Positions 1 to 27,701 are shown, counted from the first letter of the stretch. The stretch: 64,000 nt of DNA from a virus (UHGV-0023958), one strand, 5' to 3'. Numbers and translations are program-made. The notes: a model not told the origin generated them from the sequence alone.

Positions 1-1
1 A

Positions 2-7525: not shown

Positions 7526-7536
7526 ATAAAATAATG

Positions 7537-7568
7537 AAATAACGCGGTTGAAATATATCGCGTTATTT
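7537..7568 (+). terminator. 10-bp inverted repeat aaataacgcg/cgcgttattt with a 12-nt loop immediately after the tape-measure stop; the U-tract is weak.
   Basis: Perfect complementarity seen in the sequence. Confidence 0.3.
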
Positions 7569-7595
7569 CAAAATAAATATATAAGGAGAAAATAT

Positions 7596-8306: not shown

Positions 8307-8316
8307 TTGGTGATTT

Positions 8317-8976
8317 ATGATGAAAAAGTCTAAAAGAATTCTTATGATGATTGGTTTTTATTTTCTTTCATTCACTTGGGGGTTCATAATGAGTTTCATT
8401 GGGTTGTTTGTCGTTTTTGGTTCGTGCTTAATTACAAAAACAAAACCGAAGAGATTTGGTTTGTGTACGTATAATATTATTGGTGAGTATTGGGGCGGAT
8501 CTAATTGGGGATTTGGTTTTATCAGCGATAAAAGGTCTCCGAAATCAACTTATTGCCATGAACACGGTCACGGTTTACAAAATATAATTTTTGGACCGCT
8601 TATGCCGTTTATTGTTTGTATACCAAGTGCTGTCAGATATGGACTGTTTGATTGCGATACAGATAGAGATAAAATTAAGTTTTTATCGATTTTCTGTAGT
8701 TTGTTCGCTTTGGCGTTCTTTATTCCGATGATGATTGGTATATTTGCAAGCTGCTTGCCAGTAATTATTGTGTTCGGTATTTTGTTTTTATACGCTATCA
8801 TTTTGATTGTTTGGCTTGTATTTTTCGAAGCACCGAAACACAAAGGAAGACTGCACCCAGATTATGATTCCATCTGGTTTGAAGGGGATGCTACTCGCAG
8901 GGGAACTGCGTTTATGGAAAAGTGTTTTCCAGAAGAAATTTATAAAGTTAGTAGACTACCCATTAGCTTTAGCTGA
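8317..8976 (+). CDS. Polytopic membrane protein with an HExxH (CHEHGHG) zinc-metalloprotease-like motif.
   Basis: Several hydrophobic segments; the HEHGH motif; lies between the two fibre paralogues. Confidence 0.4.
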   Translation: MMKKSKRILMMIGFYFLSFTWGFIMSFIGLFVVFGSCLITKTKPKRFGLCTYNIIGEYWGGSNWGFGFISDKRSPKSTYCHEHGHGLQNIIFGPLMPFIVCIPSAVRYGLFDCDTDRDKIKFLSIFCSLFALAFFIPMMIGIFASCLPVIIVFGILFLYAIILIVWLVFFEAPKHKGRLHPDYDSIWFEGDATRRGTAFMEKCFPEEIYKVSRLPISFS

Positions 8977-9038
8977 TGGGTGATCCACATGAGTAGTTCA
9001 CAAAAAAATAAATATGATTAAAAAAAGAAGGGGGTATT

Positions 9039-9875
9039 ATGTTATATTTAGATTATGCGAAGCCCGTTGAAGGTGGTTATATACTTAACTTTTTCGCTGA
9101 TAAAGTTGAAGATATGGAAGCTATAACTGGCGGAAAAGAATTTGTTACAAAAAACGGCACGAATTACGGCGTTCCCCTTAAAGGTTCTACTGTCGTAATA
9201 ACTGCTCCCGATAAAGAAAAGAAGACGTTTATTCTTGATGAAAATGGCGAATGGAATGAAGGCGGATTAAACCCGAATGAGTTTTACACGAAGGAAGCTG
9301 CTGACGAAAAATTTATGGAAAAGGTAGTTAACATTAACCTCTCCCCTGATACTGCTACACGAGGCACTTTGACAGAAGAATAGTTAGCTACCTTGATGAA
9401 AGACGATAATAATTATATCACTCTTAACAAAGAAATCTATCGGTTAGCAGACAAGCAATACACCACAGAAATTATCTCCTATGTCAATACAGGTGTGGGT
9501 AGTAATATAATTTATATCACTGTTTCTACAAGAGCTTGGACTTTGGTTGTAGGGGAGAGGCCAAGTACGGTTTATAAACACGAGCTTACCCTCGTTGATA
9601 AAGATAATCAACACATAGAGATATCATTGATTAACAATTGGAAGTTCGAATATGACGATCAGAATTTACGTGAGTTGGTGGGTGGTGGCACGTACTCAAC
9701 TGTTGGACGTTCTGATATTAGCTTTGACGGTTCAGAGTTAGGTTTATACAATTTTTTTAGTATAGACGGTGCTACTGTAGATGGTTATGCTTATTATATT
9801 AAAACAGACGGAACAATAGGTATACAAGAGTTAAGTACAGTACGCGTTGATAGTGACTTGGTGACGGACTTTTAA
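9039..9875 (+). CDS. Tail fibre / receptor-binding-like protein, paralogue B, with one in-frame TAG at 9384-9386.
   Basis: Track ORFs 9039-9383 and 9393-9875 share a frame and are separated only by TAG. N-terminus MLYLDYAKPVEGGYILNFFAD...NGTNYGVPL. Confidence 0.55.
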
Positions 9876-10202
9876 CATTTAAACCTCATATCCCGCTGGT
9901 GAAAAAGACGCTACGGTGCATCTGGTGTGATAACTGGCGGAACCGCCACTTTAAGTGATGGTACGAGTGTACCGATAACTATAACTACCGCCGAAGCATA
10001 ATTCGGCATAAACACTTTATCTCCCTTTCCCCCAATTTGAGAGGGGAGGAATAATAAATAAAATTTAGGTTTTATTATACAGCCCAGTTTTTGTTCGGTT
10101 TTCTGTAAAAAAATCGAACACCAATAAGTTTGGGTGTGGCGAGTGAGATACCTCCCGCCCGCCACAACTCAATATAAAAAATAAAAGAGGAGGCAAGAGA
10201 TT

Positions 10203-13200
10203 ATGGCAGTTTTTAAACCGACAAATTGTTCGCCGTATTTAACATCTTTTGATATTACATATTTGAATGAAGGACCAATTTATTTTCAATGTAAAATAGA
10301 TACGTCAAACACAAATATTGACGGATATGCTATAACTGTTTATGATAGTGATAATCATAAAATTTTTCCGCATAATGGAAACGCAGTCGATAATATATCA
10401 TATATCAAAGATCTTCATTATGATACAACGAAGATTGGATCGATTATTTCTGATGATGGAATTTCTGATTTAAACACTGGTTTAAACGGAAGTTATTTAA
10501 AAATTCCTTTTGTTGTAAACAATGGTTAGAATAGTTATCTAACAAACACAACGAGAAAAAATGTTGTTGTGTATAATAAAAAAACAGACGGAAGTTATGA
10601 AATAAAAGATAATTCTGGAAATATCATTAAATTATATAACGGAAATCAGTATAAATGGACAATAACTTTATATTAGCTCGGACAAGACGCTGTTGATAAT
10701 AAGAAATCTAGGCCAGAAGAAATTAAATATTATGATATGACAGTGGCTTCTGGCAAAATTCTTGGATCTACCAATGAAAGAATCCAAAGCTATCCGAGCG
10801 ATCAAATTTATAATGATTACTTTTTACAATTATATAGTGCTCCAGTTGTTAATGTTGGTCCTGATTTTTAGATTACAAAAATTACAGGAGATGTAAAACA
10901 AGTTGGAACGAGGGTTAGAATTAAAGATTACGATTCGTATCTCGGACACATGTATTTACAAACTGGACAAGATGGTTTGTCTGAGAAAAATTTAGATATA
11001 TCAAATGTTTTCCAAGTTTTTAAAATGAGTAATAACCCAGATGATTTGGGCACAAAAGACAAAGTTGATTTTTGCATTAGTCAAAAATACTTTGTGCCAA
11101 AGTATTTCCAAGAATCTAAATCTGATTCATCGGCAGCATATTTATCTCAAACATTTGTTATTGCAAACGTCACTGGTTCAAGTGCCTCTGAAACTTTGGA
11201 AAAAGTGAAAGATGTTTATAATAAGCCGTTTTTTGAAAACACTGAAACTTTGTATGGTTTACCTTCATCTAATCAATATTACTCTAAAATTTTTAGTGGT
11301 TATGACGGAGACAATTCTCCCCCGGTTATATTTGGTTAGTCAAGAGTTTTATTGAATACGGAAAATAATAACAACGAATTAGATGAAAGTAGTGGGGCCG
11401 TAACTGGTACTAAGGATTATGGACCGAATGGAGGTAGTTCTAAGTTTAACGGTATATGGATTCCAAAAACACCAACTGTTGAAAAGATTGCAGAACATTA
11501 GAATGAAGGTAAATACACTGGAACAGATTATAAAATAACAATTCAATGGTATCGTTCTTCTGATGCTGATACATGGGGAGAAATCACAAACAAAGTCGTT
11601 TTAGATACCAACAATTTCAACAGTGATTATGATTCGTTCGCAGGTCAAAATCTTCAAGCATATACTTCTGAGCAAGAAGGAGAGCAAGTTTCAACCGGTA
11701 CTATTAATGATACGCTTATAAAATTTAACAACGAAGAACCTGTTGAAATTTATTCAAATAATTCTTACGAACATAACTATGGATTTATTTATAAAAACAA
11801 CATGGACATAACTGCATGGTTAGCGTCTATAACTGGTGAGACAACGCATGTACTAACTTATACATACATTTGTAAAAACACTTGGAGGGTAACTGGAAAG
11901 CCAAAGTGGCGCGAAGGCGATAATTTTAATGATTGGATTGGAAATCCTATTTATTTTATAGAGAAAGATAATAATATATTTCAAGACAAGCATCAATATC
12001 AAATTTTAGCATATCGTAATCCAAGTAACTCTTACTTACAAGCGGAGGTTAAGTTTAATTTAAATGAACAATATACTACTTATTATAGTGGGAATTATGG
12101 TTTAGATTGTTTTAATCCACCAGAGGAGTGGGAGAAGTGTGAAATACGCGTTGTTTGGAAAAATGATGCCGCAACAGATAAAAACTTAGATCTCCCAGAA
12201 GTTAATGATACAATTCAGTTTTTTATATATGATATAACAACTGGAATTATTAATTTTATTTCTCCGTCTACAGCCGTGTCTGTTGGAGATAAAATATTCA
12301 ATAAAGATAATTCTTCTTCGAATGTTGTGTTGTTAAATAAAACTGTTTGGGCGATTGGACAAGAGCAAGATGTTTCTACATATAAATATAAAAACAATGA
12401 AGGTCGGTTGGTAGACTATAATTATTATCCGATTTTAAACTTCAAAACAAACGATTTATATTCAATTAAAACATTCTTCCGTTCGAGCAGCGAAAATCAA
12501 TTTAGTTTATATGAACGTCCAACTGTCGATTTAGAATTATACGGCGTTTCAGGCGGTGCAAAGATAGAAATTAATGCTGCTGATAAAACATGCAAAACCT
12601 ATGAGAGAAGTATTTTTGCATAGGCTATTTATAATCAAACCAATTTGGTTCAGTGGAGAAATTATCAATGGTTTCTTTACGATGTTCCAAATATTTACGA
12701 AAACGCCGATGCGTATAAAACAGCAGCTGGATCTGCTTTGACAAAATATTTAAATCCGAATGATCTTATTTTGCAATCAGAAGTTGGTTATGATAAAGAG
12801 ATAAAATATACGTTTTATGGTTTGGCAGAAGAACACCATTGGTATATTATATCACTTGTTTTGACAGATCAATACGGAACAATTATTACAAAGAAAATTG
12901 CTGTTTATACTGATTTTACAGTGGAATTAGAACAAGATAAAGATTGGGTTAATTATGGTCTTCGGTGTGATTTAACCGGCGTCGATATGTGGTTTGAAGA
13001 TAAATACGGTTATATATATCCGAATTTGGGTGATAGAAATTATTTGATAGAAACCAACAACAAATATGCAAACAATCCAAATGGCGTTACGTATTCTGAT
13101 AGTGTTATGAATATATCTGATAACTCAGAAGGTGTTTTATATGATAGCGTATATAGCAATGACGGATTAAGTTCTTGGAATTCCCCTTCTAAACAAAATT

Positions 13201-14339
13201 TAACTTTTGATCAGAATAAAGGTATCGAATTTACGACGAGGGTTACAATAGACAGTTATCAATACTCGGCAGAATTTCTAAACGTTGTTATTAATACAGA
13301 TGGCGGAAACACAAAGAACTTGGTTTTGAAACCAGAAGATTTATATATAAGTTCTAATGATTGGCCAGAAGGTTATAAAGTTGGTTTCCCGAATTATGAG
13401 TGCTATAAGATTGGTAATTATGCTATCGGGGAAAATCCGAACGTATATGTTTATGGGAATGTAACAACCGATTTGTTCCCTAATTCTGATTCTTATAATT
13501 CTTGTATTAAATATAATAATTACTATATATCTTATATTCCTTCGAACGTAGTTCCCCTTGGAGCTAATAAACCTTCTATAAATATTCCAAATTCTTGGTA
13601 TTTTATCAATTATGATGAAGAAAATAGTGTTAAAGATATAATAAGTGATAAACCGATAAAGATAAATAAGATGATTTATGCTTTAGATGATCCCGATGGG
13701 CTATAGAACAAAGATGTATTTTATAATTTGCCAATATTTATAAGAAACGATTTATCTTTAAGCGGGAAAACAATAGAAAATTTACCTGATGGAACTAAGG
13801 TTTATAGTCTTTGGATGGATAAAAACGATGAGATAATTATACCAACAATAGTTGCTATAAATGAATCTGCTAATACTTTTTACTATTGTTATAGAAAAGT
13901 CAATAATCATCAAGAGGATATATCAGATAATATCTGGGAAGATACAAAAGAAAACGGAGAAGATAATATTTGGGAAGACGAAATTACAGTAGAAGATACT
14001 CAATCTGACCATTTAAAAAATAAAGATGGCTCGTTGAATACGATTAGAAATCGTTTGTATGGCAAAGTTTTATATTTTTATGTTCAGTGGAGCGGAAAAG
14101 AAAACGACGATATCACATACGGCATTGTTGGAAATGTATCACAAAGAGTAATAGATGTTGATTCTGAATTGTCGTTGACTTCTGTTAATCCAGTTGAGAA
14201 CAGGGTAATTACAACTGCTTTAAATTCAAAATTAGATACAACAACGTTATCTGATTAGAACACATTTGGTATATTTAAATGTTATACAGATAAATTTGGA
14301 ATATTAACTTTTGTTACTGGGGAGGGTGAAAATGGCTAA
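10203..14339 (+). CDS. Large tail / host-specificity protein of about 1378 codons with at least 8 in-frame TAG codons.
   Basis: ORFs 10203-10529, 10950-11339, 11802-12623, 12645-13706 and 13728-14258 are all in frame 0 with only TAG between them. The TAG at 14256 is followed in frame by TAA at 14337-14339, overlapping the next ATG as ATGGCTAA. Confidence 0.55.
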
Positions 14340-15927
14340 TATTAAGATAGGTATAAGTAGCGGTTATAAACCACAAGATTTTGGTGATCCTTCAAGAAAA
14401 TCAAGAGTTTCTTATTTATATGCTTATAACAAAGACGAATCTTCTCCGTCAAATAGAAATTTTCCAGCGATTTTTTCAAAGAAAGCATATAATGATATTA
14501 TGAACGACGAAAATAAAGATTTTTTATTGTTTGCGTTGAACTATACAGCTGAAAAAGTCAACGGTTTGACAATGCCGCTCCCAGATGGAATTGTTTCAGA
14601 AGGATTAAAAACGTTTCCGCAAAGGTCTATTTATAAAAGAGAAGTGTGGAGAGATGATGACAACCAGGTGCATTATGAAAAAATATTACACCCGGTTGTT
14701 TTACAAAACAATGTTTCTCGTGTTATAGACTATAATGTAACAACAAATAGAAATTATGAATATATAATTTATTTGACAGATCAAAGAGGAAGTCAAACTA
14801 TCCAAAGAGAAATACATTTCCCAATAACAACAAAGTGGGATTATTGGTCTATTTCTGAATTACATAGAACAAGCGAATAGAATGTTTATACAACATCCGA
14901 AAATGAAACGTGGTTATTTAAATTTAATGTTGAACCGGGGGAACAACAGCAGAATGTTTCTAAATCGCAACAAGATACGCTTGGTAAATACCCTGCTTTT
15001 TCTTATGGAAAAAAGAATTATACCACAAGTTCTGTTTCTTGTTTGCTTGGCTCCGAAATGCTTCCCTTTGACTTTTTAACAACGAATTATGTTCTTGTAA
15101 GAAACGAAGATGGTAGCGTTTCATGGGGTTTGGCGCAAGATGTCAGTGAGGTATATGGCGGATATACAGAATCTCGTTGGAAGAAACTATTAGATCAATG
15201 CGGAATGAACGAACGTGTTGTTAATATTTTTGACACAAAAATCACATCTAATGACAGTGTTGATATGTTGAATGAGTGGAAGAAATTGTGCAATTCTGGA
15301 AACCCGAAGTTGTATAAAAATTCCAAAGGTCAGTCGTTTATTATACAGATAACCGAATTTTCAAATTCAATTAATGAATCTTGGGATAAACAGCCGATAA
15401 CTATCAATTTTAGTTGGACAGAAATTGCAGATGCAAGCGATGCAAGAATAATACAAACAACCGAATTCACAACCGATACAAGCGGAAGTGTTTCTGGTGG
15501 AGGAGATGAGCCAGTGATGGATTATAATATTCTTTCTAATAAACCACAGATAAACGGTGTTGAGTTGGTTGGAAATAAAACGGATAAAGATTTATATCTG
15601 GAAGCAGAAGGTAATATTAAATCTATTTCTGGAACAAGTCCTTCTGTAAAATTAGACAACAACATCACTTATAATCTTGGTTCGATTAACGGATTAACAA
15701 CAACATTTGGTAGTATTAATGACGAATACTATAAAAATCGTCAGTGTTCACAGGCAGAAATTAACTTTACTGCCGCAAGTAATTTCACATATACACCTCC
15801 AGAAAATACAACAATTATAGGTGGAGATGTTGAGGGTGGAAAACTCAGTGCTAAAAAGGGCACTTCTTACAACATAGGATTTGGATATGTTGATAATGTT
15901 ATGTATGCCGTTTGTGGCATTAGATAA
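14332..15927 (+). CDS. Tail / baseplate-associated protein with one in-frame TAG at 14878-14880.
   Basis: RBS ggggaggg then ATG 14332. ORFs 14311-14880 and 15043-15927 share a frame and are joined across TAG. Confidence 0.5.
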
Positions 15928-15937
15928 AATATAAAAA

Positions 15938-16024
15938 GGAGAGGTAAATATGATTTATAATTCATCTTAGTTTTCTTTACAAGGAAGCGGAGAGGTAATT
16001 TCTATTACCTCTCCTTATTTATTT
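15938..16024 (+). promoter_or_regulatory. Alternative RNA structure. The SD ggagaggtaaat (15938-15949) has a copy ggagaggtaat (15989-15999) that forms an 11-bp hairpin with attacctctcc (16004-16014), loop ttct and a U-rich tail.
   Basis: Perfect 11-bp stem inside the first 22 codons of the 15950 gene. Its 3' arm is complementary to the genuine SD. Confidence 0.35.
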
Positions 16025-17200
16025 GATCAATATTATAATTTTTATTATATAGAAGATTATATTAAAAACAAACACATATAGCCGAGATTTAAAATATATG
16101 TTTTAAATGCCGATGAAACCGAGAGATATGAAATTCCAAATGGAGATATTATCAGCGGTAGTTATTCCGAAAACTATCAAAATGGTCAGAGGAGAACGTT
16201 GTCCTTTCAATTAAATAATAATAATGGAGAATATACGCCGTCAATTAATCATTTTTGGACTGGGCAGAAATTTTCTTTTTATATTGGATTCAATATGAAT
16301 AACGATGAAAATAGTGTTATTTGGTTTAGAAAAGGAATCTATTCTTGCCAAAATCAAAGCGTTGATAATTCATCTGATACGAAAACGGTTAGTATAGAAA
16401 CAGCTGATAAATTTTCTGTTTTGGAAGGGAAAAGCGGAACATTGGAGTATTCTTATACAATTAATGTAGGAGAGGATATTGAAGAAGTTATAAACAACAT
16501 ATTAAACACGGACAATGGTTCTGGTTTTATGTTGGATTCAAAAGGCATTGTTTATCATTCTTTATTTAAAGATAAAAAGGTAATTTCTCAAATATCAGAA
16601 TCTGCTGGCGCAACTTACGGTTCAATTATTTTAAAACTTGCAGAAATGCTTTCTGCAGAAGTTTTTTATAATGTCAACGGTAATTTGACGTTAATTCCGA
16701 AACAAGAAGTTATCAACGATTCCGACAAGCCGATTTTGTTTTCTTTTAATGCAGACAACGGGGATTTGATGACACATAATTACAGTTTTTCTTTCGAAGA
16801 TATTGTAAACAAGGTTATTGTTATCGGTTCAAATGTTAATGGAAGCACGTGTAGAGCGACGGCTGTCAACAACTCCGCAGATTCTCCAATCAGTGTATCA
16901 AGAATTGGCTATAGAACAGGATCAATAATTAATGATTCTTCGATTAATTCAGATTATCTTGCGCAGGAAAGAGCTGATTATGAATTAAGAAAAGTAAGTG
17001 TTGCTAAAACAAGTGTAAGTAACACGGCGTTATTGAATCCTTTAATAGAAGTAAACAATTTAATAGAAATTACCGATAATTTTTACGGTATAGAAAACGA
17101 AAAATTCCTTGTTCAATCGATTTCTTTTTCGTTAGATTATAGCGGAACGATGTCGATTTCAAGTTCAAATATAAACAATCTTTCATTTACGAATAGATAA
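15950..17200 (+). CDS. Tail protein with two in-frame TAG codons (15968-15970 and 16079-16081).
   Basis: Strong RBS aaggagagg then ATG 15950. Frame 2 stays open apart from TAG, reaching track ORF 16199-17200. Confidence 0.5.
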
Positions 17201-17210
17201 GGAGGGACGT

Positions 17211-18902
17211 ATGAATAAGACAGAACAAGCAAATGGCTTTTTAAATATAATACGCTCCATTATCAAAGAGGAACAAGATAAGCGCGACAGGGTTGAAATT
17301 TGTCAAATTGATAGCGTAAATGAAGATGGGACAGTAAATATAAAAATGCTTTCAGATTTTGAAACTGTTAGAATAATTCCAAATATTTCAAATCAATCGA
17401 TATATAGTTTTAAAAATGGAGATTTGGCTATTATTTATATGATTCAAAATCAATTATCGAACGCGTTTATAATTGCTAAATGCGGTCCGACAAATGAAAG
17501 TTTAAGAATATCTTCGTCGGATGGTGATACAACTGGCGGAGGCACTGTTATACAAAATATAACATATCAAAGCGGAACTACTAGCGGCGTAACATCTGTC
17601 AATGGTAAAACGGGCGAGGTTACTATTACTGCATAGGATCTTGGAGCAATTACTGAAATTCCAGATGTAACACAAATACAATCAACAGATATTTCTTCGC
17701 TAGTTTATGATACAACAAATGGTGCCGCTTTTGAAATAAATAACAGTATTATCTTTTCAGATGGAACAAAAAATAACCCACTTTTAAAATTCAATTTGCC
17801 CATTATCGGCATCAATGGTATTAGTATAGATAAATCTAATGGTAAAAATGTTCTGGAAATTTCAGGAAAAGATTTGCAAGATTTAATTAATTCTATATCC
17901 TTGACTAGTGGTACGAATAATGGAACTTTAAAATTAACCGTTGGTACAACTATTGTTGATAATATTAAAGTTACGGGTTTTGATAAAAAGCAAGACCAGC
18001 TTAGCGAGAGCCAATTAAATGCTGTTAATTCTGGAATAACTTCAGAAAAAGTAACCACTTATGATGAATACCAGTCTTAGATTAATTCTAAATACACAAA
18101 ACCCGATGGCGGTATTCCGAAGTCAGATTTGTCTTCGGATGTTCAAAGTTCTTTGGTGAAAGCCGATTCTGCCTTACAAACCCATCAGAAAATTACAACT
18201 GGTAGTGCGAACGGAACGATTGCCGTTGATGGGACTGATGTTTCTGTTAAAGGATTAGGTTCTCTTGCGTACAAAAATTCTTTGACAAAAACAGATGTTG
18301 GACTTGGAAACGTTGATAATACATCGGATGAAGCCAAACCAATTTCTACCGCAACACAAACAGCCTTAGATGGGAAAGTAAATACTACAACAACGGTAAA
18401 CGGTCACGCGTTATCTTCTAATGTTACTATTACACAATCGGATGTCGGTTTGGGTAATGTTATTAACGCAGGGCAAGATCCAACACCAACATCCGATTCT
18501 ATAAATTATGTTACTTCTGGTGGTGTTAAAAGTTATGTTGACAACGGGTTAAACAAAAAAGCGGATTTACTAGTTAATGAATCAACGGTTACTACTGTAT
18601 AGTCTGGCCGCTTGTATGAGTTTACTGATATTCACAATCCATTTAGTTTATCTATCAATATGGATACATTTAAAACATCTAATGATGTTTCGCAGATTTA
18701 TTTCACGGCAGCAGCTAATTTTGATGTTGTCCTTAATGTTTCTTCTGGTGTTAGAATAATCGGAGATGGTGTTAATGCGAGTACCAAAAAAATTTCTTGT
18801 GTTAAAGGCAATTCGTATTATTTTACTTTTGGTTATACAAAAAAAGGTGTTTCTATTGTAAGTAATATTGATGCAAATTGGAGTGAGATAGCAACGGTAT
18901 AA
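17211..18902 (+). CDS. Tail fibre protein with GLGNVDNTSD-type fibre repeats and three in-frame TAG codons.
   Basis: ORFs 17211-17636, 17796-18080, 18129-18602 and 18612-18902 are all in frame 0. Repeats TDVGLGNVDNTSDEAKPIS and SDVGLGNVINAGQ. RBS aaggaggg. Confidence 0.6.
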
Positions 18903-19004
18903 TATTTATAATATATAATAATATTATAATATATATATAATAAAATAAAACAAATAAAAAGAAAATAAAGTAACTTTTTATTTTTGAAAATAAGGCGAAA
19001 TCCC

Positions 19005-19033
19005 TTGACTTTGGGGTGATAATATGTTATAAT
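19005..19033 (+). promoter_or_regulatory. Sigma70-type consensus promoter: TTGACT, 17-bp spacer, TATAAT.
   Basis: Exact hexamers and spacer; upstream of dUTPase. Confidence 0.55.
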
Positions 19034-19098
19034 ATACTCCAAAGCCAAGGGTGAAAGTCTTTGGTTTAGAAAGTTTTAAGAAAAGAGGTCAGTTTTAT

Positions 19099-19575
19099 AT
19101 GAGAAGTTTTGAAGAAGTAAAACCAGAATTTAAGAAGTTTCCAAATGTAAAAACTCGTTTGCCAGAAAGAAGCGATGCAAAGTCGGCAGGTTACGATTTT
19201 TATAGTAAGGAAAATTATGTTATTAATCCGAAAGAATCGCACGTTTTTTGGACAGATGTGAAAGCACAAATGTACTTTGATAACGTGCTTAATATATACG
19301 CCCGTTCGGGACTTGGTTGTAAATACGGTGTAGTTCCCAAGAACTGTGTCGGAATTATTGATGCCTCCTATTACGGGAATGAAAAGAATGACGGCGGAAT
19401 CGGTGTTTGTCTCGAAAATAAAGGTGATGAGCCGTATTCCGTGAAAGTTGGCGATCGTATTGCACAGGGTGTTTTCACGAAGTATTATATTACCGATGAC
19501 GATAAATATGTTTATGGGAAGGAAAAAGATAATGGCAGAAAGGGTGGTTTCGGTTCTTCCGACGAGGTGAAATAA
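19099..19575 (+). CDS. dut: dUTP pyrophosphatase.
   Basis: Motifs AGYDF, RSGLG, GIIDASYYG, GDRIAQ and RKGGFGSS; RBS aagagg. Confidence 0.85.
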   Translation: MRSFEEVKPEFKKFPNVKTRLPERSDAKSAGYDFYSKENYVINPKESHVFWTDVKAQMYFDNVLNIYARSGLGCKYGVVPKNCVGIIDASYYGNEKNDGGIGVCLENKGDEPYSVKVGDRIAQGVFTKYYITDDDKYVYGKEKDNGRKGGFGSSDEVK

Positions 19576-19784
19576 TGAAAGTTGTTTTGTATACTGTGCA
19601 TTGTCCAAAATGTAAAATTTTAGAAAAGAAGTTAGAACAATCAAAAATCAAATATGATGTTTGTGAAGATTTGGATTTGATGTTGGCAAAGGGATTTCAA
19701 ACGGCTCCAGTTCTCGATGTTGACGGTAGAATTATGGAATTTAAGGAAGCCGTTCAATGGGTTAAAGAACAAATTGGGGGTTGA
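19575..19784 (+). CDS. nrdH: NrdH / glutaredoxin-like redoxin.
   Basis: CPKC active site in a 69-aa thioredoxin-fold-sized protein directly upstream of nrdD. Confidence 0.5.
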   Translation: MKVVLYTVHCPKCKILEKKLEQSKIKYDVCEDLDLMLAKGFQTAPVLDVDGRIMEFKEAVQWVKEQIGG

Positions 19785-21706
19785 TGCGTATGGAAATAAG
19801 TATTAAGCTTGATTCGGATTTCGAAGAACAAATTAAGTATTTAAAAAACAAATACGGAGATGAAATTACAAAAATCAATGGATTGTCAGATGGGCAATTA
19901 GATTATACTCACTTTATTGACAATTTTATTGATAGTGACAATGTTGCAAATGCCACAATTGATCCAAATGCAAATGCTGGCACTAAAGATGTCCGTGGTT
20001 TACTTGATGAAATGAATAAACCACATTCGAAATTGTTGAGTTTAAATAAAATATACTATGAGGTCAAGAAAAAATACGGAAAAGAATTAGCTAATAAATG
20101 GCTCGAAGATGAATGGTCTGGTGCTTTATATTTGCATGATGCCCCGTCATCATCTTTTTATTCTTATTGCTACGCTTATGAGTTACAGGGTTTGGCAGAA
20201 AAAGGTTTGTATTTTTTGCCAAAAAGTAACACCGAACCTCCGAAACATTTAACAACCTTTTTCGCTCATTTACGAGAATTTATTGTGTGGGTATCCAATA
20301 GAACCGCTGGTGCGTGTGCGCTTCCAAGCTTTTTCGTTTATTCCTGGTATTTTTGGAATAAAGATGTTCAATCTGGATATTATTTAAAAGATCCCGAATA
20401 TTATAGAAGACAGATGTTTCAGCAATTTATTTTTGAAGTAAATCAAATTCATACAAGAATTGTTCAAAGTGCTTATACGAATTTGATTATTATGGATAGA
20501 AATTATATTACTGAAATTTTTGGCGGAAGAGAATTTCCAGATGGAAGTTTAGTAATTGATCACGTTGAAGACATTATTGAACATCAAAAAGCGTTTATGG
20601 AAACCGAATGTGAAATTAGAAAACAGGTATTCCATACATTTCCAGTTTATACGTATTCCCTTCTTTATCAAAATGGAAAATTTGTAGATGAAGAATTTGC
20701 GCGTTGGTGTAATAAACAAAATCTCCAATGGTATGATAGTAATTTTTATGTTGGAGATAGCGTTACTAATCTTGCTTCGTGCTGTAGAATGTTAAACGAT
20801 TTGACAAAACAGAAACAATTCCAGTCAAGTATTGGCGGAAGTCTTGTTGAAATCGGCTCCGTCAAAGTAAGCACAATTAATCTTATGAGAATTGCCATTG
20901 AATCAAATGGTGATAAAGATAAGTTTATTGAAATTTTAACCGATAGGGTTAAAATGAATATGTTTGTTCTTGATAGAGTTCGTCATATTATTCAAAGGAA
21001 CATAGAAAAGGGGTTACTTCCAAATTATTCGTACGGTGTTATTAATTTGGAAAAACAAACCACGACTAATGGTTTAACTGCAATGTATGAAGCCATTGAA
21101 AAAATGGGAATGACAGAAACAGATGAATTTGGTTATGTAAAATATACCCAAGAAGGAATTGATTTTGCTAGTAAAATAATGGATACCGTAAATTATTTGC
21201 AAGATCATGCTGGTTTTGATTATAATGTTTCTCTCGAAATTATTCCAGCAGAATCTGCAAATGTGAAATTGTGTAAAAAAGATAATATTTTATATAATTT
21301 ACATGATAAATTTATTTATTCTAATCAATGGACGAGTTTAATGGCAAAATGTAGTATGAAAGAAAGAATTAAACTTTCGTCTCTTCTCGACAAAAAAGCT
21401 GGCGGTGGTCAAATACTTCACATTTCATTGGAGGGTGCAAGATTAACAGAAGAAGAGAGTTGGAATATGTTAAATTATATTGCTAAAAGTGGTGTAATTT
21501 ATTTTGCATTTAATCCAAAACTTTCCTTATGTGAAAAACAACATACTTTCTTTGGCGATGTTTGTCCTATTTGTGGAAGACCAAAGGTTGACGAAGCAAG
21601 TAGAATTGTTGGATATTTGGTTGCTACTTCTACGTATTCCAAAGATAGAAAAGAGGAATATGAGAATAGAAAATGGTATGCAATTGGCGATGACCAATAT
21701 TTATAA
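19784..21706 (+). CDS. nrdD: Anaerobic ribonucleoside-triphosphate reductase, class III.
   Basis: About 640 aa. C-terminal Zn ribbon CPICGRP and glycyl-radical-like SRIVGYL. Confidence 0.8.
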   Translation: MRMEISIKLDSDFEEQIKYLKNKYGDEITKINGLSDGQLDYTHFIDNFIDSDNVANATIDPNANAGTKDVRGLLDEMNKPHSKLLSLNKIYYEVKKKYGKELANKWLEDEWSGALYLHDAPSSSFYSYCYAYELQGLAEKGLYFLPKSNTEPPKHLTTFFAHLREFIVWVSNRTAGACALPSFFVYSWYFWNKDVQSGYYLKDPEYYRRQMFQQFIFEVNQIHTRIVQSAYTNLIIMDRNYITEIFGGREFPDGSLVIDHVEDIIEHQKAFMETECEIRKQVFHTFPVYTYSLLYQNGKFVDEEFARWCNKQNLQWYDSNFYVGDSVTNLASCCRMLNDLTKQKQFQSSIGGSLVEIGSVKVSTINLMRIAIESNGDKDKFIEILTDRVKMNMFVLDRVRHIIQRNIEKGLLPNYSYGVINLEKQTTTNGLTAMYEAIEKMGMTETDEFGYVKYTQEGIDFASKIMDTVNYLQDHAGFDYNVSLEIIPAESANVKLCKKDNILYNLHDKFIYSNQWTSLMAKCSMKERIKLSSLLDKKAGGGQILHISLEGARLTEEESWNMLNYIAKSGVIYFAFNPKLSLCEKQHTFFGDVCPICGRPKVDEASRIVGYLVATSTYSKDRKEEYENRKWYAIGDDQYL

Positions 21707-21711
21707 TAAAA

Positions 21712-22665
21712 ATGGACAACAGAAGATTATCAACTATTGAAAATGAAAGAGTAAAATTAGATTATAATATTGTTAAAAATAAAATGGTTGATTGCAAAAA
21801 TCAAAAAGATTTAGCAAAACAACTTGGTTGTGGTGTTAATAAATTAAGAGAATATTTGATTGAAAACGAATTATATGATGAATATTGTTCTATTCATAAT
21901 ATTCCAAATAAAGCAAGAAAAGAAATTGTTTGCTGTGTTTGTGGTGAAAAGAAATCTGTTTATTTATTGAACGAAAAACCATATTGTAAGAAACATTATA
22001 ATCAAATGTATCGATATGGCAAAATATATGAAAATACAATATATGATAAAAATGAATATATTTTTGAAGAAGATATTGTAAAAATCATATTAAAAGATAA
22101 ATATCAAAATTATAAAAGCGAATCAATCATAGACGTTTCCGATTATGAAAAGATTTGTAATTACAAGTGGTACGAATCTTATGGATATTGTGTAACGAAA
22201 AGTAATAATTGCGATGAAGGTATTGATATAGCAAATATTCTATTTGATAATTATGCAGATAGATTCGATCATCAAAATCATAACAAATTAGATAATCGTA
22301 GGTGCAATTTGCGACCAGTAACAGCACATCAAAATTCAATGAATATGGGCAAAAAATGCACGAATACTTCAGGAGTTACTGGTATACAAAGACAAAATAA
22401 AACAAGTGAAAAGTGGATTGCAACTATAGCTTATAACTATAAACCCATATGGCTTGGGGTTGATTATAGTTTCGACAGAATGGTAATCGAAAGATTAAAA
22501 GGGGAAGCAAAATATTTTAAAGAATTTTCTCCAAATTATAATTTAGAGAAAAAATTAATATGTTTAAATTATGTTTCCAGAGATGATAACTTGAATCATT
22601 ATATAGAAATGGATTTAAATGGAAATATTATAACAAATATTGTTGTTTCTAATGATTTAAAATGA
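21712..22665 (+). CDS. HNH homing endonuclease with an AP2 DNA-binding domain, inserted between nrdD and nrdG.
   Basis: HNH motif NRRCNLRPVTAHQNSMN and an AP2-like SGVTGIQRQNKTSEKWIATI; Cys-x2-Cys pairs. Confidence 0.6.
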   Translation: MDNRRLSTIENERVKLDYNIVKNKMVDCKNQKDLAKQLGCGVNKLREYLIENELYDEYCSIHNIPNKARKEIVCCVCGEKKSVYLLNEKPYCKKHYNQMYRYGKIYENTIYDKNEYIFEEDIVKIILKDKYQNYKSESIIDVSDYEKICNYKWYESYGYCVTKSNNCDEGIDIANILFDNYADRFDHQNHNKLDNRRCNLRPVTAHQNSMNMGKKCTNTSGVTGIQRQNKTSEKWIATIAYNYKPIWLGVDYSFDRMVIERLKGEAKYFKEFSPNYNLEKKLICLNYVSRDDNLNHYIEMDLNGNIITNIVVSNDLK

Positions 22666-23138
22666 AAATCAAACAATTAATATATGAAGATTTTGTCAAT
22701 TATAAAAAACCATCATTGTTCTTGGGAACTACCGCCTGTAGCTTTAAATGTGAGAAAGAGGCTAATTGCATTGGAATGTGTCAAAATTCAGATCTTGTTA
22801 AAAGCAAAACAATTGAAATTGATAATAAGATTCTAATCGATAGATATTTAAATAACGGTATTACGGAAGCCGTTGTTATTGGTGGATTAGAACCACTTGA
22901 TACATTTGAAGATACTTTGCAATTCATTAAAGACTTTAGAGAAAAATCGGATGACGATATTGTTATATATACAGGTTTTAATGAAGACGAAATTGAAGAT
23001 AAAATAGTTATTTTAAAAAAGTTTAAAAATATTATAGTGAAGTTCGGGCGCTATCGTCCGAACTTCCAAAAGCATTTTGATGAAGTGCTTGGAGTGGAAT
23101 TGGCTTCTCCAAATCAATATGCTAAGAGAATGAGTTAA
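22662..23138 (+). CDS. nrdG: Anaerobic RNR activating protein-like; the Cys cluster CSFKCEKEANCIGMC is atypical.
   Basis: Size and position downstream of nrdD; N-terminal Cys cluster. Confidence 0.4.
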   Translation: MKIKQLIYEDFVNYKKPSLFLGTTACSFKCEKEANCIGMCQNSDLVKSKTIEIDNKILIDRYLNNGITEAVVIGGLEPLDTFEDTLQFIKDFREKSDDDIVIYTGFNEDEIEDKIVILKKFKNIIVKFGRYRPNFQKHFDEVLGVELASPNQYAKRMS

Positions 23139-23159
23139 TTTTAAACAAGGAGGTTGTTT

Positions 23160-24365
23160 ATGGAAAACGTATTGATTGAATTTAAAAATAAAGCTAAAAA
23201 GCAAAACATTATTAAGGCAGGGTTGTGTTCTGTAGCAATCTCCTTGTTATTTAATATTCCGTTTTTGATAGCTTTTTGGATTATGGATTATAAATATAAA
23301 TTTATAATTTGCGCTGGAATTTTTATTGTCGGAATCTCCGTTTTGTTTCCAGTTTTATATTTCAAAAAGTTTAAATATACCGAAATTCAATTAGCAAAAA
23401 TAATTGACGATCTTGGTTTAGAAGAACGTGTTTTGACAATGATTGAATTAAAAGATAATAATTCTTTTATTGCAAAGAAGCAAAAAGAAGATACGTTGAA
23501 CGTCCTGAAAACCGTAGAGGCGAATGATTTAAAAGGAAAATATAAAAAACAATCATTTCTTTCGATATTTTCAACTGCATTGGCATCTTTGGTAATTGCT
23601 TTATCTTTAATGTTTCCAAATATTAGAGAAACTATTATCGCTCGCGGAGAACCAAAATATACAATTGAAGTGTCTGCAGAAGGTCTCGGTTTTGTGATTG
23701 ATTATTCTAAATATGAAAATCAATCTTTGATAAATGCCGTTTCTAAAAAACAAGAACAAGATGAAATCAATAAAATTAACAATAAAGAAATAGTTGAATT
23801 AAAACAATTCCCGACTGTATTTTCAAATAGAATTTCCGTAAATTATAGATGTTTCGAAGATATTGATGCAACTATGGTTTTAGACGGTGCCAACTTTGCA
23901 GATGTTTCTTATAGAATACAATCCGATGAAACACATATTTTAATGGCACTTCCTTATAAAGGATATGTGTTTGTTGGTTGGTCAGACGGTTGTGCTTCTC
24001 CGTTCAGAGAAATTGACAATTATTCCACCGACTTGATTGCATTGTTCGATGAAGTAAGTTCCGTAGGTGAAGACTTACCAGATAAACAAAAAGAACCGGG
24101 AGACAAAGATGGATCTGATGGTGGTGAGTCTGATGGAATTGGACCCGAAGGAAATGGAACCGGTAAAACAAACAATGATAATAGTTGGGGCGATGGAGCG
24201 AAAGGTTCGCCAGCAAATCAAGTAATTAACGGTGAAACTTATTATGGTGATATTTTTAATCAAAGCTATCAAGAGGCTGTTGAAAGAATAAAGAATGATA
24301 CAAATTTAACAGATGCACAAAAGAAAGCTATAACTGATTACTTTGAATCAATAAGAAAAAATTAA
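23160..24365 (+). CDS. Membrane protein with two or three N-terminal TM helices and a Gly/Asp-rich C-terminal region.
   Basis: RBS aaggagg then ATG 23160; hydrophobic segments. Confidence 0.4.
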   Translation: MENVLIEFKNKAKKQNIIKAGLCSVAISLLFNIPFLIAFWIMDYKYKFIICAGIFIVGISVLFPVLYFKKFKYTEIQLAKIIDDLGLEERVLTMIELKDNNSFIAKKQKEDTLNVLKTVEANDLKGKYKKQSFLSIFSTALASLVIALSLMFPNIRETIIARGEPKYTIEVSAEGLGFVIDYSKYENQSLINAVSKKQEQDEINKINNKEIVELKQFPTVFSNRISVNYRCFEDIDATMVLDGANFADVSYRIQSDETHILMALPYKGYVFVGWSDGCASPFREIDNYSTDLIALFDEVSSVGEDLPDKQKEPGDKDGSDGGESDGIGPEGNGTGKTNNDNSWGDGAKGSPANQVINGETYYGDIFNQSYQEAVERIKNDTNLTDAQKKAITDYFESIRKN

Positions 24366-24378
24366 AGGAGTATTATTT

Positions 24379-25188
24379 ATGATACCTAATAAAACAAAAG
24401 CATCTGAATATAGGGTGCGGACATTAGATAGAAATGATTTAAATGAGAAAGGAACGATTTATATTGGTTAGGGCGGTACTTCTACTATTGATAAAGTTGA
24501 AAATATTTCCAATGTAGCGGCAATTAGTAAGCCAGATGATGATTTAAACAAATCTGGTTATTATGCTTTAACGCTTGGAGGAAATGCAAATCAAGATGGA
24601 ATTTGGGGCAGATTTTTACATGAGGTAGATTGCCAAATAACACCAACTTTATTTCAATTAAACGAAGGAGCGCCATCTCTTCATAATCCTTATAAATATG
24701 TAATTCGCGGTGGGTATAAGTCGTTAAATATTAAAAAAAGTATATTTGATTCAACACTTACATATATAATGGATTATAATTCAAATTTATCATCTTTTTC
24801 TTCTGTTGATTAGAAAATATTTGCAAAATTATCTATGAGGGGATTTGTAGAATATGATACTCCGTTTGAAGTATATTCTTCTTTTGTTGCCTCTCAGAAG
24901 ACTGGAAGTTCTTGGGAGTTATATCCTTTGAATTTTTCACCGATTAATATTACAAAATTAAACGATAATTATATGCGAAATTTCCAAAGCATTGTTTTTT
25001 GTTCAAATGATACACCGTGGCAAGAAACTGCGGATGGTTTTCAATTAAACCTTCATGCAATCGGTATGGGAAATACATTAGAAGAGCAAAAATTATATTA
25101 TTAGAAAAATGGCACTGGTGAAATTCTAACTGCTAATCTATCAAATATTTCATAGATTAGAGTAACTCAAATGTCTATTATTTTTTAA
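24379..25188 (+). CDS. Hypothetical protein needing TAG decoding (four in-frame TAG codons), sitting inside the otherwise standard-code early region.
   Basis: RBS aaaggag then ATG 24379. Frame 1 is open through TAGs at 24469, 24811, 25102 and 25153 to TAA at 25186-25188, and contains track ORF 24835-25104. Confidence 0.5.
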
Positions 25189-25200
25189 AATAAATTTTAA

Positions 25201-25237
25201 GAGGAGTGTCAAAATTACTTGACATTCCTCTTTTTTT
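25201..25237 (+). terminator. Intrinsic terminator: 12-bp stem gaggagtgtcaa/ttgacattcctc, loop aattac, then TTTTTTT.
   Basis: Seen in the sequence; one G-U pair. Confidence 0.6.
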
Positions 25238-25247
25238 ATGGTAAAAT
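25219..25247 (+). promoter_or_regulatory. Promoter TTGACA-N17-TAAAAT whose -35 lies in the 3' arm of the preceding terminator.
   Basis: Hexamers and 17-bp spacer. Confidence 0.5.
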
Positions 25248-25277
25248 ATCTTTGTAATAAAACACAAGGAGAATGTT

Positions 25278-25541
25278 ATGACAACAAAGCCAGTAATCAA
25301 AGAAAACTTTATTGAATTTCTTAAAACTAATTATCCAGAATGTTTTGAAAGCGGAACACCGATAGTAGAAAACGCTTTAGAAGCTTTGATTATATTAAAA
25401 AAGAGAGAGTATACAAAACAATTTTGTGCGTCGCTTTCAAAAGATGTTATGCAAGTTAAAACGAATAAGAAATTCAAAGATCAGTTAAAAGATATTGAAT
25501 ATAAAATTCGTAAAAATCATATTGATTTAGGAGAGAATTAA
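25278..25541 (+). CDS. Hypothetical protein.
   Basis: RBS aaggag; ORF track. Confidence 0.4.
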   Translation: MTTKPVIKENFIEFLKTNYPECFESGTPIVENALEALIILKKREYTKQFCASLSKDVMQVKTNKKFKDQLKDIEYKIRKNHIDLGEN

Positions 25542-25864
25542 TGGAACAATTAAAAGAAAGACCTATATTTATAACCGCTAAACATGTTAAAAATACGTTG
25601 AATGGAAAGACTTACGGGGAGATTAGAGAGATTCTGGAAATCGATCCAGGAGAACATGAATTACTACCGAACGGAGAGAAAATTCCAGATGACGTAGTTT
25701 GTATTGTTAACAAATCTGAAGAATGGCCTTGCACTGGAGGTCTTGTAAACGTAGAAATTCGTTTCACCGTGGGAAACAAAGAATACGGGCAAATGCTTAT
25801 GGCCAAACTTGGGCGTGTAACCTGTAGATTCACCCGTCCGCCTTTGGAAGCTTTAGAAGGTTAA
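25541..25864 (+). CDS. Hypothetical protein.
   Basis: ORF track; ATGA overlap with the upstream gene. Confidence 0.4.
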   Translation: MEQLKERPIFITAKHVKNTLNGKTYGEIREILEIDPGEHELLPNGEKIPDDVVCIVNKSEEWPCTGGLVNVEIRFTVGNKEYGQMLMAKLGRVTCRFTRPPLEALEG

Positions 25865-25869
25865 AAATT

Positions 25870-26667
25870 ATGTCATTTCGTGAATTTTATAATGAAGATT
25901 GTTTTATAAATATGAAAGGGTTTAAAGATAAATCAATAAACCTTATTTTAACTTCTCCGTTTTATAATACGAATAAAAAAGCAGGGAAGAAAAATACGCT
26001 TGAAAACACAGAAATCAAAAAAGGAACATATTCTTATATTAGATATGACGAACACGTCGATAATATGACGGACGAAGAATATGAAGATTTTACAAAAAGA
26101 TTATTTAATGAATTTAATAGGATTGTTGTAAACAACGGTGTTGTTCTTTATAATCTTTCTTATAGCAACGATAATCCAGCAAATTTGTTTTCATTAGTTA
26201 ATATGATTTGCGAAGAAACGAATTGGATGATTGCCGATGTTATTGTTTGGAAAAAGAAAAGTGCTTTGCCGAATAATTGCTCTCCAAATCGCCTAACTCG
26301 TATCTTTGAGTTTATATTTGTTTTTTGCAGAAAAGGCGAAGAAAAAACTTTTTATGTAAATAAAAGGGTGATTTCATTACGCGCAACAGGGCAGAAATCG
26401 TATGAAAATATCTTTAATTTTGTCGAAGCGAAGAACAATGACGGTCCGTGTCCGTTGAATAAAGCGACGTATTCAACTGATTTGTGCAAACAGTTACTTC
26501 GAATTTATGCAAATCCAGAAGACAAAGATTTTGTTGTTTACGATCCTTTTATGGGAACAGGGACAACTTTGGTTGCATGCAAGGAAATGGATATAAATTG
26601 TTTTGGTTGTGAAATTTCTAAAAAACAATGCGAGTGGACGCAAAATCGCTTGACAAATCAAAACTAA
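25870..26667 (+). CDS. DNA methyltransferase, N6-adenine / N4-cytosine beta class.
   Basis: Motif IV TSPFY and motif I VYDPFMGTGTT. Confidence 0.65.
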   Translation: MSFREFYNEDCFINMKGFKDKSINLILTSPFYNTNKKAGKKNTLENTEIKKGTYSYIRYDEHVDNMTDEEYEDFTKRLFNEFNRIVVNNGVVLYNLSYSNDNPANLFSLVNMICEETNWMIADVIVWKKKSALPNNCSPNRLTRIFEFIFVFCRKGEEKTFYVNKRVISLRATGQKSYENIFNFVEAKNNDGPCPLNKATYSTDLCKQLLRIYANPEDKDFVVYDPFMGTGTTLVACKEMDINCFGCEISKKQCEWTQNRLTNQN

Positions 26668-26678
26668 TGTGATATAAT
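26650..26678 (+). promoter_or_regulatory. Promoter TTGACA-N17-TGnTATAAT overlapping the methyltransferase stop, upstream of the suppressor tRNA.
   Basis: Exact consensus. Confidence 0.5.
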
Positions 26679-26699
26679 ATATATGTTATAAACGCGTGA

Positions 26700-26719
26700 T
26701 GTCAAATCTAGATTTGACA
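26700..26719 (+). promoter_or_regulatory. 20-bp perfect palindrome tgtcaaatct/agatttgaca whose 3' half supplies a second TTGACA -35 just upstream of the tRNA.
   Basis: Seen in the sequence. Confidence 0.35.
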
Positions 26720-26748
26720 AAACGTGATTATATAAAATTACTGTACAG

Positions 26749-26823
26749 TGGGGAATAGCATAACGGTAGTGCGGTGCTCTCTAAAAGCACTCTGTGTCGG
26801 TTCGAGCCCGACTTCCCCCGCCA
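26749..26823 (+). tRNA. Amber suppressor tRNA, anticodon CUA, with Gln-like features U1, G10 and G73.
   Basis: Cloverleaf: acceptor tggggaa/ttccccc; D-stem gcat/gtgc; anticodon stem gtgct/agcac with loop cTCTAaa; T-arm gtcgg-ttcgagc-ccgac; encoded CCA. Confidence 0.75.
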
Positions 26824-26856
26824 GTAACGATTAAAAATAAAATGGAGGTAATGCTT

Positions 26857-27231
26857 ATGTCGTAGATACGTGAATCTTGTTATTTTTATACTTAGAAGGC
26901 AGCATCTTATGTCGGGAGTAGAGATTATGAAATCAAATACGATCCCGGCGTTTTCGTTGTATTTTCTGAAGATTTTTATCCCTTGGACGATGACAAATAC
27001 CAATCGTGTTTATGCAGGAGTTTGAATTTGGCGAACGAATATAACACAAATGTTTCTTATTCAGACAAGGAAGATTTGGCCAAAGCAATTTATTTCGATT
27101 TATATCAGAAACCAGATGAAACCATTTTTGTCTGCGAAAATGATGCAATTGCCGATGTGGCAAACAGGTATTTTGGCGAAGATAGTATTATAAACATTAA
27201 AAAGGTAATTGAGGAATTTGAAGAAAAATGA
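26857..27231 (+). CDS. Small protein whose only in-frame ATG is followed by TAG at codons 3 and 13; lies immediately downstream of the suppressor tRNA.
   Basis: GGAGG RBS 9 nt upstream of ATG 26857; same frame as track ORF 26983-27231. Confidence 0.45.
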
Positions 27232-27701
27232 ACAGAGAGTTTGTGAGAAATTTTAACAGAATCAATAAGAGCAATTATTCCAAACAAGATATTCAAACGA
27301 TGATTGCACTGACGAATATTATGCAGGGTAAATTGTCGAAAGATATGGAACTCGGTTTTCCGAGTTTAAAACATTATGATAATCCAGAGTTATTTCCGAA
27401 TGGAATGTTGGTCAAATTGAATTATGAAAAAATTAAACAACGGAATCAAAATGATTTGACAGAAGATTATAAAAAGTTTGTTGAAGAAAACAAAGATAAT
27501 GAATTTCATCTAATCAGAGATGACGAAGATACGGGGTTAGTTGCACTAGAAGAAGATAAAAGAAAAACCGTTCTCGATGGAAAAGAAGTTGATTGTCCAA
27601 AGTTCTTATTCGATATGCTTTCAGATTTGCTTGTAAAAGATAAAAATAATGATTGGGTACCAGCGTACGAGTTTGAAGGAAAATTTTTAGAAAAAAAATA
27701 A
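27228..27701 (+). CDS. Hypothetical protein.
   Basis: ORF track; ATGA overlap. Confidence 0.4.
   Translation: MNREFVRNFNRINKSNYSKQDIQTMIALTNIMQGKLSKDMELGFPSLKHYDNPELFPNGMLVKLNYEKIKQRNQNDLTEDYKKFVEENKDNEFHLIRDDEDTGLVALEEDKRKTVLDGKEVDCPKFLFDMLSDLLVKDKNNDWVPAYEFEGKFLEKK

Follow-up and report, generated by a model that had tools for sequence, protein, structure and literature searches.

A gene with four in-frame TAG codons, probably encoding a modular tail fibre, at the end of a standard-code phage operon

The window examined here, that is, the whole stretch of 64,000 nucleotides of viral DNA that was analysed, belongs to a human-gut phage of roughly 130-150 kb, probably with a Firmicutes host, and at 24379-25188 it carries a frame interrupted by four TAG codons (hereafter the target gene). 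The explanation that best covers the evidence as a whole, and which we consider probable, is that of a read-through, modular fibre gene which is placed in an early transcription unit and depends on a suppressor tRNA for its translation. Judged by comparison with its relatives, the target is a real, fully translated gene whose four TAGs are read through, and its product is most likely a tail-fibre/receptor-binding (host-range) protein.

Read-through of the frame at 24379-25188

The gene and its immediate signals are:

24379-25188 (+): target gene, 269 codons plus TAA; reading TAG as Gln is required at codons 31, 145, 242 and 259
24364-24370 (+): ribosome-binding site AAAGGAG, 8 nt 5' of the ATG at 24379, read from the sequence
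25199-25239 (+): intrinsic terminator, a 14-bp stem (25199-25232) followed by a U-run

An earlier note on this DNA had given these coordinates, the AAAGGAG, the four TAGs, the TAA and the strong terminator, and all are as it described them. The ribosome-binding site shares bases with the TAA that ends the upstream gene (24363-24365), and the target starts 13 nt past that stop codon; its in-frame TAGs lie at 24469, 24811, 25102 and 25153, and its TAA at 25186-25188. At the 33% GC of the window, chance would provide about 0.003 frames of 270 codons without TAA or TGA, all six reading frames included. The terminator hairpin behind the gene (-21.4 kcal/mol; z = -7.0 against shuffles) is identical in the related locus L004, and it is also the 3' boundary of the swapped segment described below.

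A protein search returned four full-length relatives of the target, 82-94% identical to it, and three IMG/VR contigs (127-148 kb) carry the gene in conserved synteny. The TAGs at codons 31, 145 and 242 are kept in all four sequences compared (the window and L001-L003), the relatives being 78-94% identical in this comparison. Codons 173 and 203 are CAG or CAA in the window and TAG in relatives; in the other two columns that vary, TAG stands opposite AAT/AAG in one and TCA in the other, such that the exchange with Gln holds for two of the four columns. We computed dN/dS between the window and L001-L003 separately for the segments delimited by the TAGs. The ratio is 0.09-0.24 over the whole gene and below 0.25 in each large segment: 0.00 (codons 1-30), 0.11-0.23 (31-145) and 0.04-0.14 (146-246). 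In the tip, codons 247-264, it amounts to 0.28 with L001 and to 2.2-2.3 with L002 and L003. Neither frameshifts nor TAA/TGA stops were found in eight relatives, and the homology of the target to proteins with sense codons spans the TAG of codon 31. Database entries of 30 aa (P0041, exactly codons 1-30) and 46 aa come from relatives and are evidently standard-code miscalls; a host-range gene is thereby shattered by standard-code gene callers.

The TAG dependence claimed in the earlier note is borne out by the conserved TAG positions, the swaps with CAA/CAG and the purifying selection that flanks each of the first three TAGs. One could nevertheless suppose a decaying pseudogene, or a gene whose sole product is a standard-code piece of 89 aa at 24835-25104, since code 11 splits the frame into four pieces of which this is the longest to start with an ATG. 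The earlier note had itself named expression of this piece alone as the finding that would speak against it. We regard either possibility as exceedingly improbable, given that codons 1-30 and 31-145, upstream of the 89-aa piece, are under purifying selection at ratios of 0.00 and 0.11-0.23, and that the TAG conservation and exchanges, the eight uninterrupted relatives and the homology across codon 31 all run counter to it.

Operon, suppressor tRNA and the meaning of TAG

Nearly all genes of the window lie on the + strand. When TAG is read through, 1-18902 forms a heavily recoded tail module, which ends 5.5 kb upstream of the target. The tape-measure frame in this module has 33 TAGs, and the module also encodes a tail/baseplate-hub-like protein and, at 17211-18902, a tail fibre; 48 of its 268 Gln-equivalent codons are TAG. 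For 47 genes in 19033-64000 (19-64 kb) the corresponding count is 0 of 342, and these early genes stop at TAA (38) or TGA (9), never at TAG. All recoded frames stop at TAA or TGA as well. With TAG at 4 of its 13 Gln-equivalents, the target differs from the early genes (P = 1e-6) and not from the tail module (P = 0.27). It lies outside the tail morphogenesis module, from which it is separated by the genes for dUTPase, NrdD, HNH endonuclease, NrdG and a membrane protein:

19005-19033 (+): sigma70-type promoter-like site, TTGACT-17-TGnTATAAT, opening the unit that runs from dUTPase to the target
19099-24365 (+): upstream genes of the target's unit, with PHROGs and Pfam matches and 0 in-frame TAG
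19099-19575 (+): dUTPase, TAG-free
19784-21706 (+): NrdD, TAG-free
21712-22665 (+): HNH endonuclease, TAG-free
22662-23138 (+): NrdG activase, TAG-free
23160-24365 (+): predicted membrane protein of 401 aa, TAG-free
25219-25247 (+): sigma70-type promoter-like site, TTGACA-17-TGnTAAAAT, starting the next TAG-free unit

Promoters and terminators were called as consensus matches, and on such calls the simplest reading is a single unit from the promoter at 19005 to the terminator at 25199, with the promoter at 19005 presumably acting early. Altogether, 13 strong intergenic TTGAC[AT]-17-TATAAT sites occur between 19005 and 60712, one of them with TAAAAT as the second hexamer; 11 of the 13 have the extended -10 TG, and most precede a start codon by 30-37 nt. 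Behind the target, the site at 25219 coincides in part with the terminator stem, namely with the 3' arm of the hairpin. All 13 are confined to the TAG-free region, with none in the recoded tail module, in the gaps of which we also sought a distinct late-promoter motif; these gaps are too few and too AT-rich for one to be defined. That the target is embedded among standard-code genes, as the earlier note had it, is confirmed: it shares a unit with dUTPase, NrdD, HNH, NrdG and the membrane protein, and its neighbours have no in-frame TAG either upstream (19099-24365) or downstream (25278-26667). Its description as an isolated recoded gene stands insofar as the gene is isolated; it is not unique, since the recoded tail module ends at 18902 and a further ORF at 26857-27231 carries TAGs.

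Downstream of the target follow two small ORFs and an N6/N4 DNA methyltransferase gene, and further on lie replication genes, annotated in syntenic relatives as AAA_24, DnaB_C and PHP/DNA_pol3_alpha. Among GenBank phages, megablast found no match to 23100-27300 and tblastn none to the target protein, and the DnaB of the phage is less than 30% identical to the DnaB of Clostridioides, Bacillus and Lactococcus phages; by these searches, the lineage is one without a close relative among GenBank phages.

The amber suppressor and its surroundings are found a short distance behind the target:

26650-26678 (+): sigma70-type promoter-like site, perfect (12/12) and with extended -10, 70 nt upstream of the suppressor tRNA; conserved in L004
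26749-26823 (+): amber-suppressor tRNA (anticodon CUA), found by ARAGORN; Rfam tRNA model 52.8 bits
26857-27231 (+): second TAG-dependent ORF, 124 aa, with TAG at codons 3 and 13 and a GGAGG ribosome-binding site, directly behind the suppressor tRNA

The tRNA sits 1.5 kb downstream of the target and is nearly invariant across seven related loci. The amino acid it delivers was approached by aligning the tail genes of the window codon by codon to 13 related loci, which yielded 90 columns where one genome or more has TAG. The alternatives at these columns are Gln (CAA and CAG) in 55 of 102 cases, followed by K (11), E (9) and S (9), with all others at 4 or fewer, and CAA is two mutations away from TAG. 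On this evidence, TAG is Gln in the target phage, with charging by Gln itself predicted. The body of the tRNA (U1, G2-C71, G3-C70, G10, G73) may likewise be of Gln type, resembling bacterial tRNA-Gln in the identity elements of E. coli GlnRS. A further ARAGORN call, tRNA-Gln(ttg) at 46148-46219, receives no support from the Rfam tRNA model, has an aberrant 3' end and is probably a false positive, so that the window offers no standard phage tRNA-Gln for comparison with the suppressor. The base following in-frame TAGs shows no bias (purine 74% against 68% background, P = 0.38).

In the ORF at 26857-27231, both TAGs are invariant in seven loci, including a sister lineage whose slot genes are TAG-free (see below), and the changes between the two TAGs are synonymous (ATA to ATC, CGT to CGC). 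Its PHROG match is weak, and one could speculate that it encodes a suppressor-dependent regulator or reporter.

A number of other loci were noted in their own right. The HNH gene between NrdD and NrdG is present in the window (21712-22665) and in L012 and absent from L013 and L004, and NrdD is called in two pieces in L005 (GIY-YIG insert, 2277-3335) and L006 (6795-7263), which suggests intron or intein-type insertions. The 401-aa protein at 23160-24365, with its N-terminal transmembrane segments, weak InlB B-repeat match and acidic Gly-rich tail, belongs to the window lineage only (L001-L003, L010-L013), is absent from L004-L006 and shows no covariation with cassette type. An ORF of 107 aa at 25541-25864 occurs in the window, L004, L006 and L012 and is missing from L001-L003 and L005 through a clean indel with flanks about 96% identical. 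At 58865-59072 (+) there is a HEARO RNA (RF02033; 121.7 bits, E = 1e-24 in Rfam), immediately upstream of an ORF for a 409-aa HNH endonuclease at 59100-60329 (+; phrog_119, E = 8.5e-64); by these matches, the two constitute an IscB/OMEGA-like pair of RNA-guided nuclease components in a phage genome. Within the tail module, a non-coding gap of 327 nt (9876-10202) has 42% GC against 33% for the genome and a folding z of -3.7. Only its last ~84 nt, which contain a GC-rich hairpin just 5' of the ribosome-binding site of a 1379-aa gene, are conserved in nine relatives, the remainder being specific to the window. The gap has no Rfam match, and we rejected a retroelement template as its identity, as it has no repeat elsewhere in the window.

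N-terminal module and exchangeable C-terminus

The target protein divides into two parts:

24379-24522 (+): conserved N-terminal module of about 47-48 aa (MIPNKTKASEYRVRTLDRNDLNEKG.IYIG.GGT...), containing TAG codon 31 (24469-24471)
24523-25185 (+): swappable C-terminal cassette of 221 aa, an orphan domain, with TAGs at 24811, 25102 and 25153

The N-terminal module, presumed to be the virion-attachment part, is found again, 65-98% identical, in about 34 proteins whose C-termini are unrelated, and when the target was compared by hhalign with other unannotated cassettes, residues 1-41/49 alone aligned. In all six contigs examined, the module-bearing protein occupies the same slot, after NrdG and before an 87-aa ORF and the methyltransferase, and behind the conserved N-terminus of about 47 aa at least five unrelated C-terminal types are found there; the locus thus combines a conserved N-terminal module with exchangeable C-termini. 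Some slot-mates, among them P0005 and P0029, end in Peptidase_S74 (39-50 bits; Pfam gathering threshold 22), and others, among them P0009 and P0023, end in Gp10_C (PF21939; 96-104 bits; Pfam gathering threshold 27) and match the solved structure of T4 gp10. Slot-mates of both types match many tail-fibre PHROGs. The target itself matches neither the Peptidase_S74 domain nor the Gp10_C domain (PF21939).

The exchange is seen in L012, a contig near-isogenic with the window: the two are 94% identical over 19000-24517, and this level of identity resumes at 25195, whereas between the equivalents of 24517 and 25195 L012 carries an S74 fibre end and a Gly_rich_2 gene. By the points at which identity breaks off and resumes, the unit of exchange begins where the N-terminal module ends and reaches to the terminator. 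In L012 the target cassette is replaced by an S74-type fibre end, and in L013 by one of the Gp10_C type. The target is also more divergent than its flanks, and together with the shared module, the swapping of cassettes and the fast-evolving tip this is a pattern characteristic of modular fibres or receptor-binding proteins, making the slot a hotspot for the exchange of receptor-binding domains. The fibre nature of the alternative cassettes is established by their domains; for the target, a place in the virion is what we infer from the company it keeps. Along with the full-length relatives, then, the homology search of the TAG=Q translation that the earlier note had suggested yielded an answer other than the one anticipated, for it points not to a delayed-early function but to a virion fibre or receptor-binding protein, a late function in line with the published view that structural genes are the recoded ones.

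The S74-type fibres of the slot are always followed by a Gly_rich_2 protein (L012 6159-7499; L004 8788-9942), which carries 4 TAGs where it occurs in the window lineage and none in the sister lineage; it thus travels with the cassette.

The C-terminal domain has proved an orphan throughout. HMMER over 1.84 billion representatives gave 12 hits, with no match to the C-terminal domain outside its own cluster, and sequence searches of Pfam, PHROGs and PDB with the target, the C-terminal domain alone and the N-terminal module gave no significant match, the best sub-threshold ones being Olfactomedin-like at E = 0.016 (below its cut-off) and PDB entries at E >= 0.5. An AlphaFold2 model from the four-sequence alignment of the target had a mean pLDDT of 33 and was unusable. 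As the C-terminal domain has no detectable homologue and no usable model, the fibre assignment draws on the N-terminal 47 residues and on synteny. No paralogue of the N-terminal module is present in the window, and scanning IMG/VR and JGI metagenomes with it added nothing beyond the three viral contigs already mentioned and two short gut contigs. Against the fibre reading stand the position of the gene outside the tail module and the fact that the N-terminal module matches no Pfam family and no solved structure.

TAG as a possible timer, and known systems

The virion genes of the phage are written in genetic code 15, with TAG as Gln. In the mechanism that we propose, a short fibre would be docked to the virion by residues 1 to about 47 of the target, and residues from about 48 to 269 would form an exchangeable distal domain, the stretch between N-terminal module and terminator being replaced by recombination. 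The gene would be the last cistron of a unit of standard-code nucleotide-metabolism genes under a host-type promoter, the first five of which the host could translate at once. At the TAG of codon 31, host ribosomes would release a peptide of 30 residues until the suppressor tRNA-Gln(CUA), expressed from its own perfect promoter 1.5 kb downstream of the target, had accumulated, and full-length protein would be made solely in the suppressor-positive phase, alongside the other recoded tail proteins. A translational delay of this kind is suggested by position, since a TAG-bearing gene in an early-promoter unit would have to wait for the suppressor tRNA.

In the window lineage, every gene of the slot carries TAGs, in the following numbers:

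Window (target): 4
L001, L002, L003: 5 each
L006: 5
L012, fibre: 2
L012, Gly_rich_2: 4
L013: 3

TAG makes up 31-45% of the Gln-equivalents in slot genes, compared to 18% in tail genes. When the slot genes of the window lineage are pooled and codon 31 is removed, TAG accounts for 16 of 47 Gln-equivalents versus 48 of 268 in the tail (odds ratio 2.4, P = 0.017 in what is a post hoc test), and genes with different cassettes have kept the TAG at codon 31. In the sister lineage (L004, L005, L014), codon 31 is Lys and none of the 27 Gln-equivalents in the slot is TAG, compared with 9 of the 52 in the tail genes of that lineage (P = 0.024), and the promoter and terminator layout of its slot operon is identical to that of the window. 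The absence of TAG from the same slot in this lineage implies that gating is lineage-specific and not obligatory for a fibre gene placed there, and it weakens the claim of the earlier note that expression is deliberately coupled to the suppressor; the gating may in part be a neutral consequence of suppressor availability.

Indeed, one could take the TAGs for neutral passengers rather than a timer, in a gene that is needed or expressed late, for instance through read-through transcripts from the tail module, and in which CAG and CAA have drifted to TAG. We give this a little less than an even chance. It agrees with the TAG share of the target, which is no different from that of the tail module (P = 0.27), with the free interchange of TAG and Gln codons between close relatives, with the TAG-free slot of the sister lineage under the same promoter and terminator, and with the published variation in gene-level recoding among close relatives (Babkin et al., PMC10607447). 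Moreover, no intergenic terminator was found between the tail module and the unit of the target, so that late transcripts reading through from the module may be as important as the early promoter. Yet not one TAG occurs in the five co-transcribed genes, some 1,700 codons in total, or in any of the 47 early genes, which makes drift alone insufficient and places the target in a different selective class, and both the somewhat raised share of TAG in the slot (16/47 over 48/268; odds ratio 2.4, P = 0.017, post hoc) and the TAG kept at codon 31 across cassettes pull in the same direction. These comparisons agree with selection for delay as well as with drift in a gene needed late.

The function of the protein, too, has been viewed differently. 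The reading of the earlier note, a non-structural delayed-early function deliberately coupled to suppressor accumulation, would suit a nucleotide-metabolism operon with a host-type promoter, an adjoining suppressor tRNA and a C-terminal domain that carries no assigned function; we find it improbable, as the N-terminal module is common to proteins of the same slot that end in tail-fibre domains, as cassette swapping and a fast-evolving tip are typical of receptor-binding proteins, and as TAG-free occupants of the slot exist. In phage T5, the gene for a receptor-blocking lipoprotein adjoins that for the receptor-binding protein, and by analogy the target might be a fibre-like non-virion protein, that is, a secreted or cell-bound decoy or a receptor-masking protein, possibly acting with the 401-aa membrane protein, directly behind whose TAG-free gene it lies, outside the tail module. 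This, however, is rather more doubtful still, given that neither a signal peptide nor a transmembrane segment can be read in the target sequence and that the 401-aa gene is 94% identical in L012 despite a different cassette there and is absent from the sister lineage.

If the preferred reading of a suppressor-dependent fibre gene is carried further, amber recoding might replace a late promoter, the TAGs allowing a host-range fibre cassette to sit in an early operon of the host RNA polymerase, and the ORF at 26857-27231 could be a sensor or regulator of the suppressor. We offer this as speculation that is more likely wrong than right; were it true, nature would have supplied an 'ungated' control in the TAG-free sister lineage. 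In either case, the locus packs the recoding model into a few kb, with one operon, one host-type promoter, an adjoining tRNA and TAG-free relatives, and since the translational timer has been proposed in published surveys without a test, it is suited to a direct one.

The features of this phage can be compared with those of code-15 gut phages in general. Borges et al. (10.1101/2021.08.26.457843) describe standard-code early genes together with recoded structural and lysis genes, some clades with recoded modules scattered over the genome, and a recoded homing endonuclease inside an early gene, and propose the idea of a translational timer. Metaproteomic validation of code 15 is reported by Peters et al. 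(PMC9523058), and Babkin et al. (PMC10607447) describe the phAss-1 group with a Gln-type tRNA-Sup, in which the recoding of single genes, including dUTPase and NrdG, differs among close relatives. As in such phages, the genome here is AT-rich, TAG is never a stop, the suppressor tRNA(CUA) lies in the standard-code part, replication and nucleotide-metabolism genes keep the standard code, virion genes have TAGs that align to Gln, and recoded genes lie in several separate places and vary in recoding between close relatives. Unlike in those phages, a lone recoded virion-type gene here ends an otherwise standard-code operon with a host-type promoter, set apart by translation and not by genome position or an evident promoter, in a lineage with no close phage relative in GenBank.

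With modular tail fibres (Peptidase_S74 and T4 gp10/gp12-type tips) the target shares the conserved N-terminus, the exchangeable C-terminus and the divergent distal tip, its swap boundaries coinciding exactly with the module's end and with the terminator. It departs from them in that its C-terminal domain matches no known fibre domain, the protein is short (269 aa), the gene lies in a nucleotide-metabolism operon, and attachment to the virion is presumed. A parallel for the setting is the recoded homing endonuclease of Agate phages (Borges et al.), in which recoded stops also fall within an early standard-code transcript and expression is proposed to be held back until the code switches. There, however, TGA encodes Trp and the product is a selfish endonuclease, whereas here TAG encodes Gln, the product is presumably a virion protein, and the HNH endonuclease in the same operon (21712-22665) is TAG-free. 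The target is therefore best placed as a further example of the published code-15 strategy of recoding late genes, and not as a new strategy.
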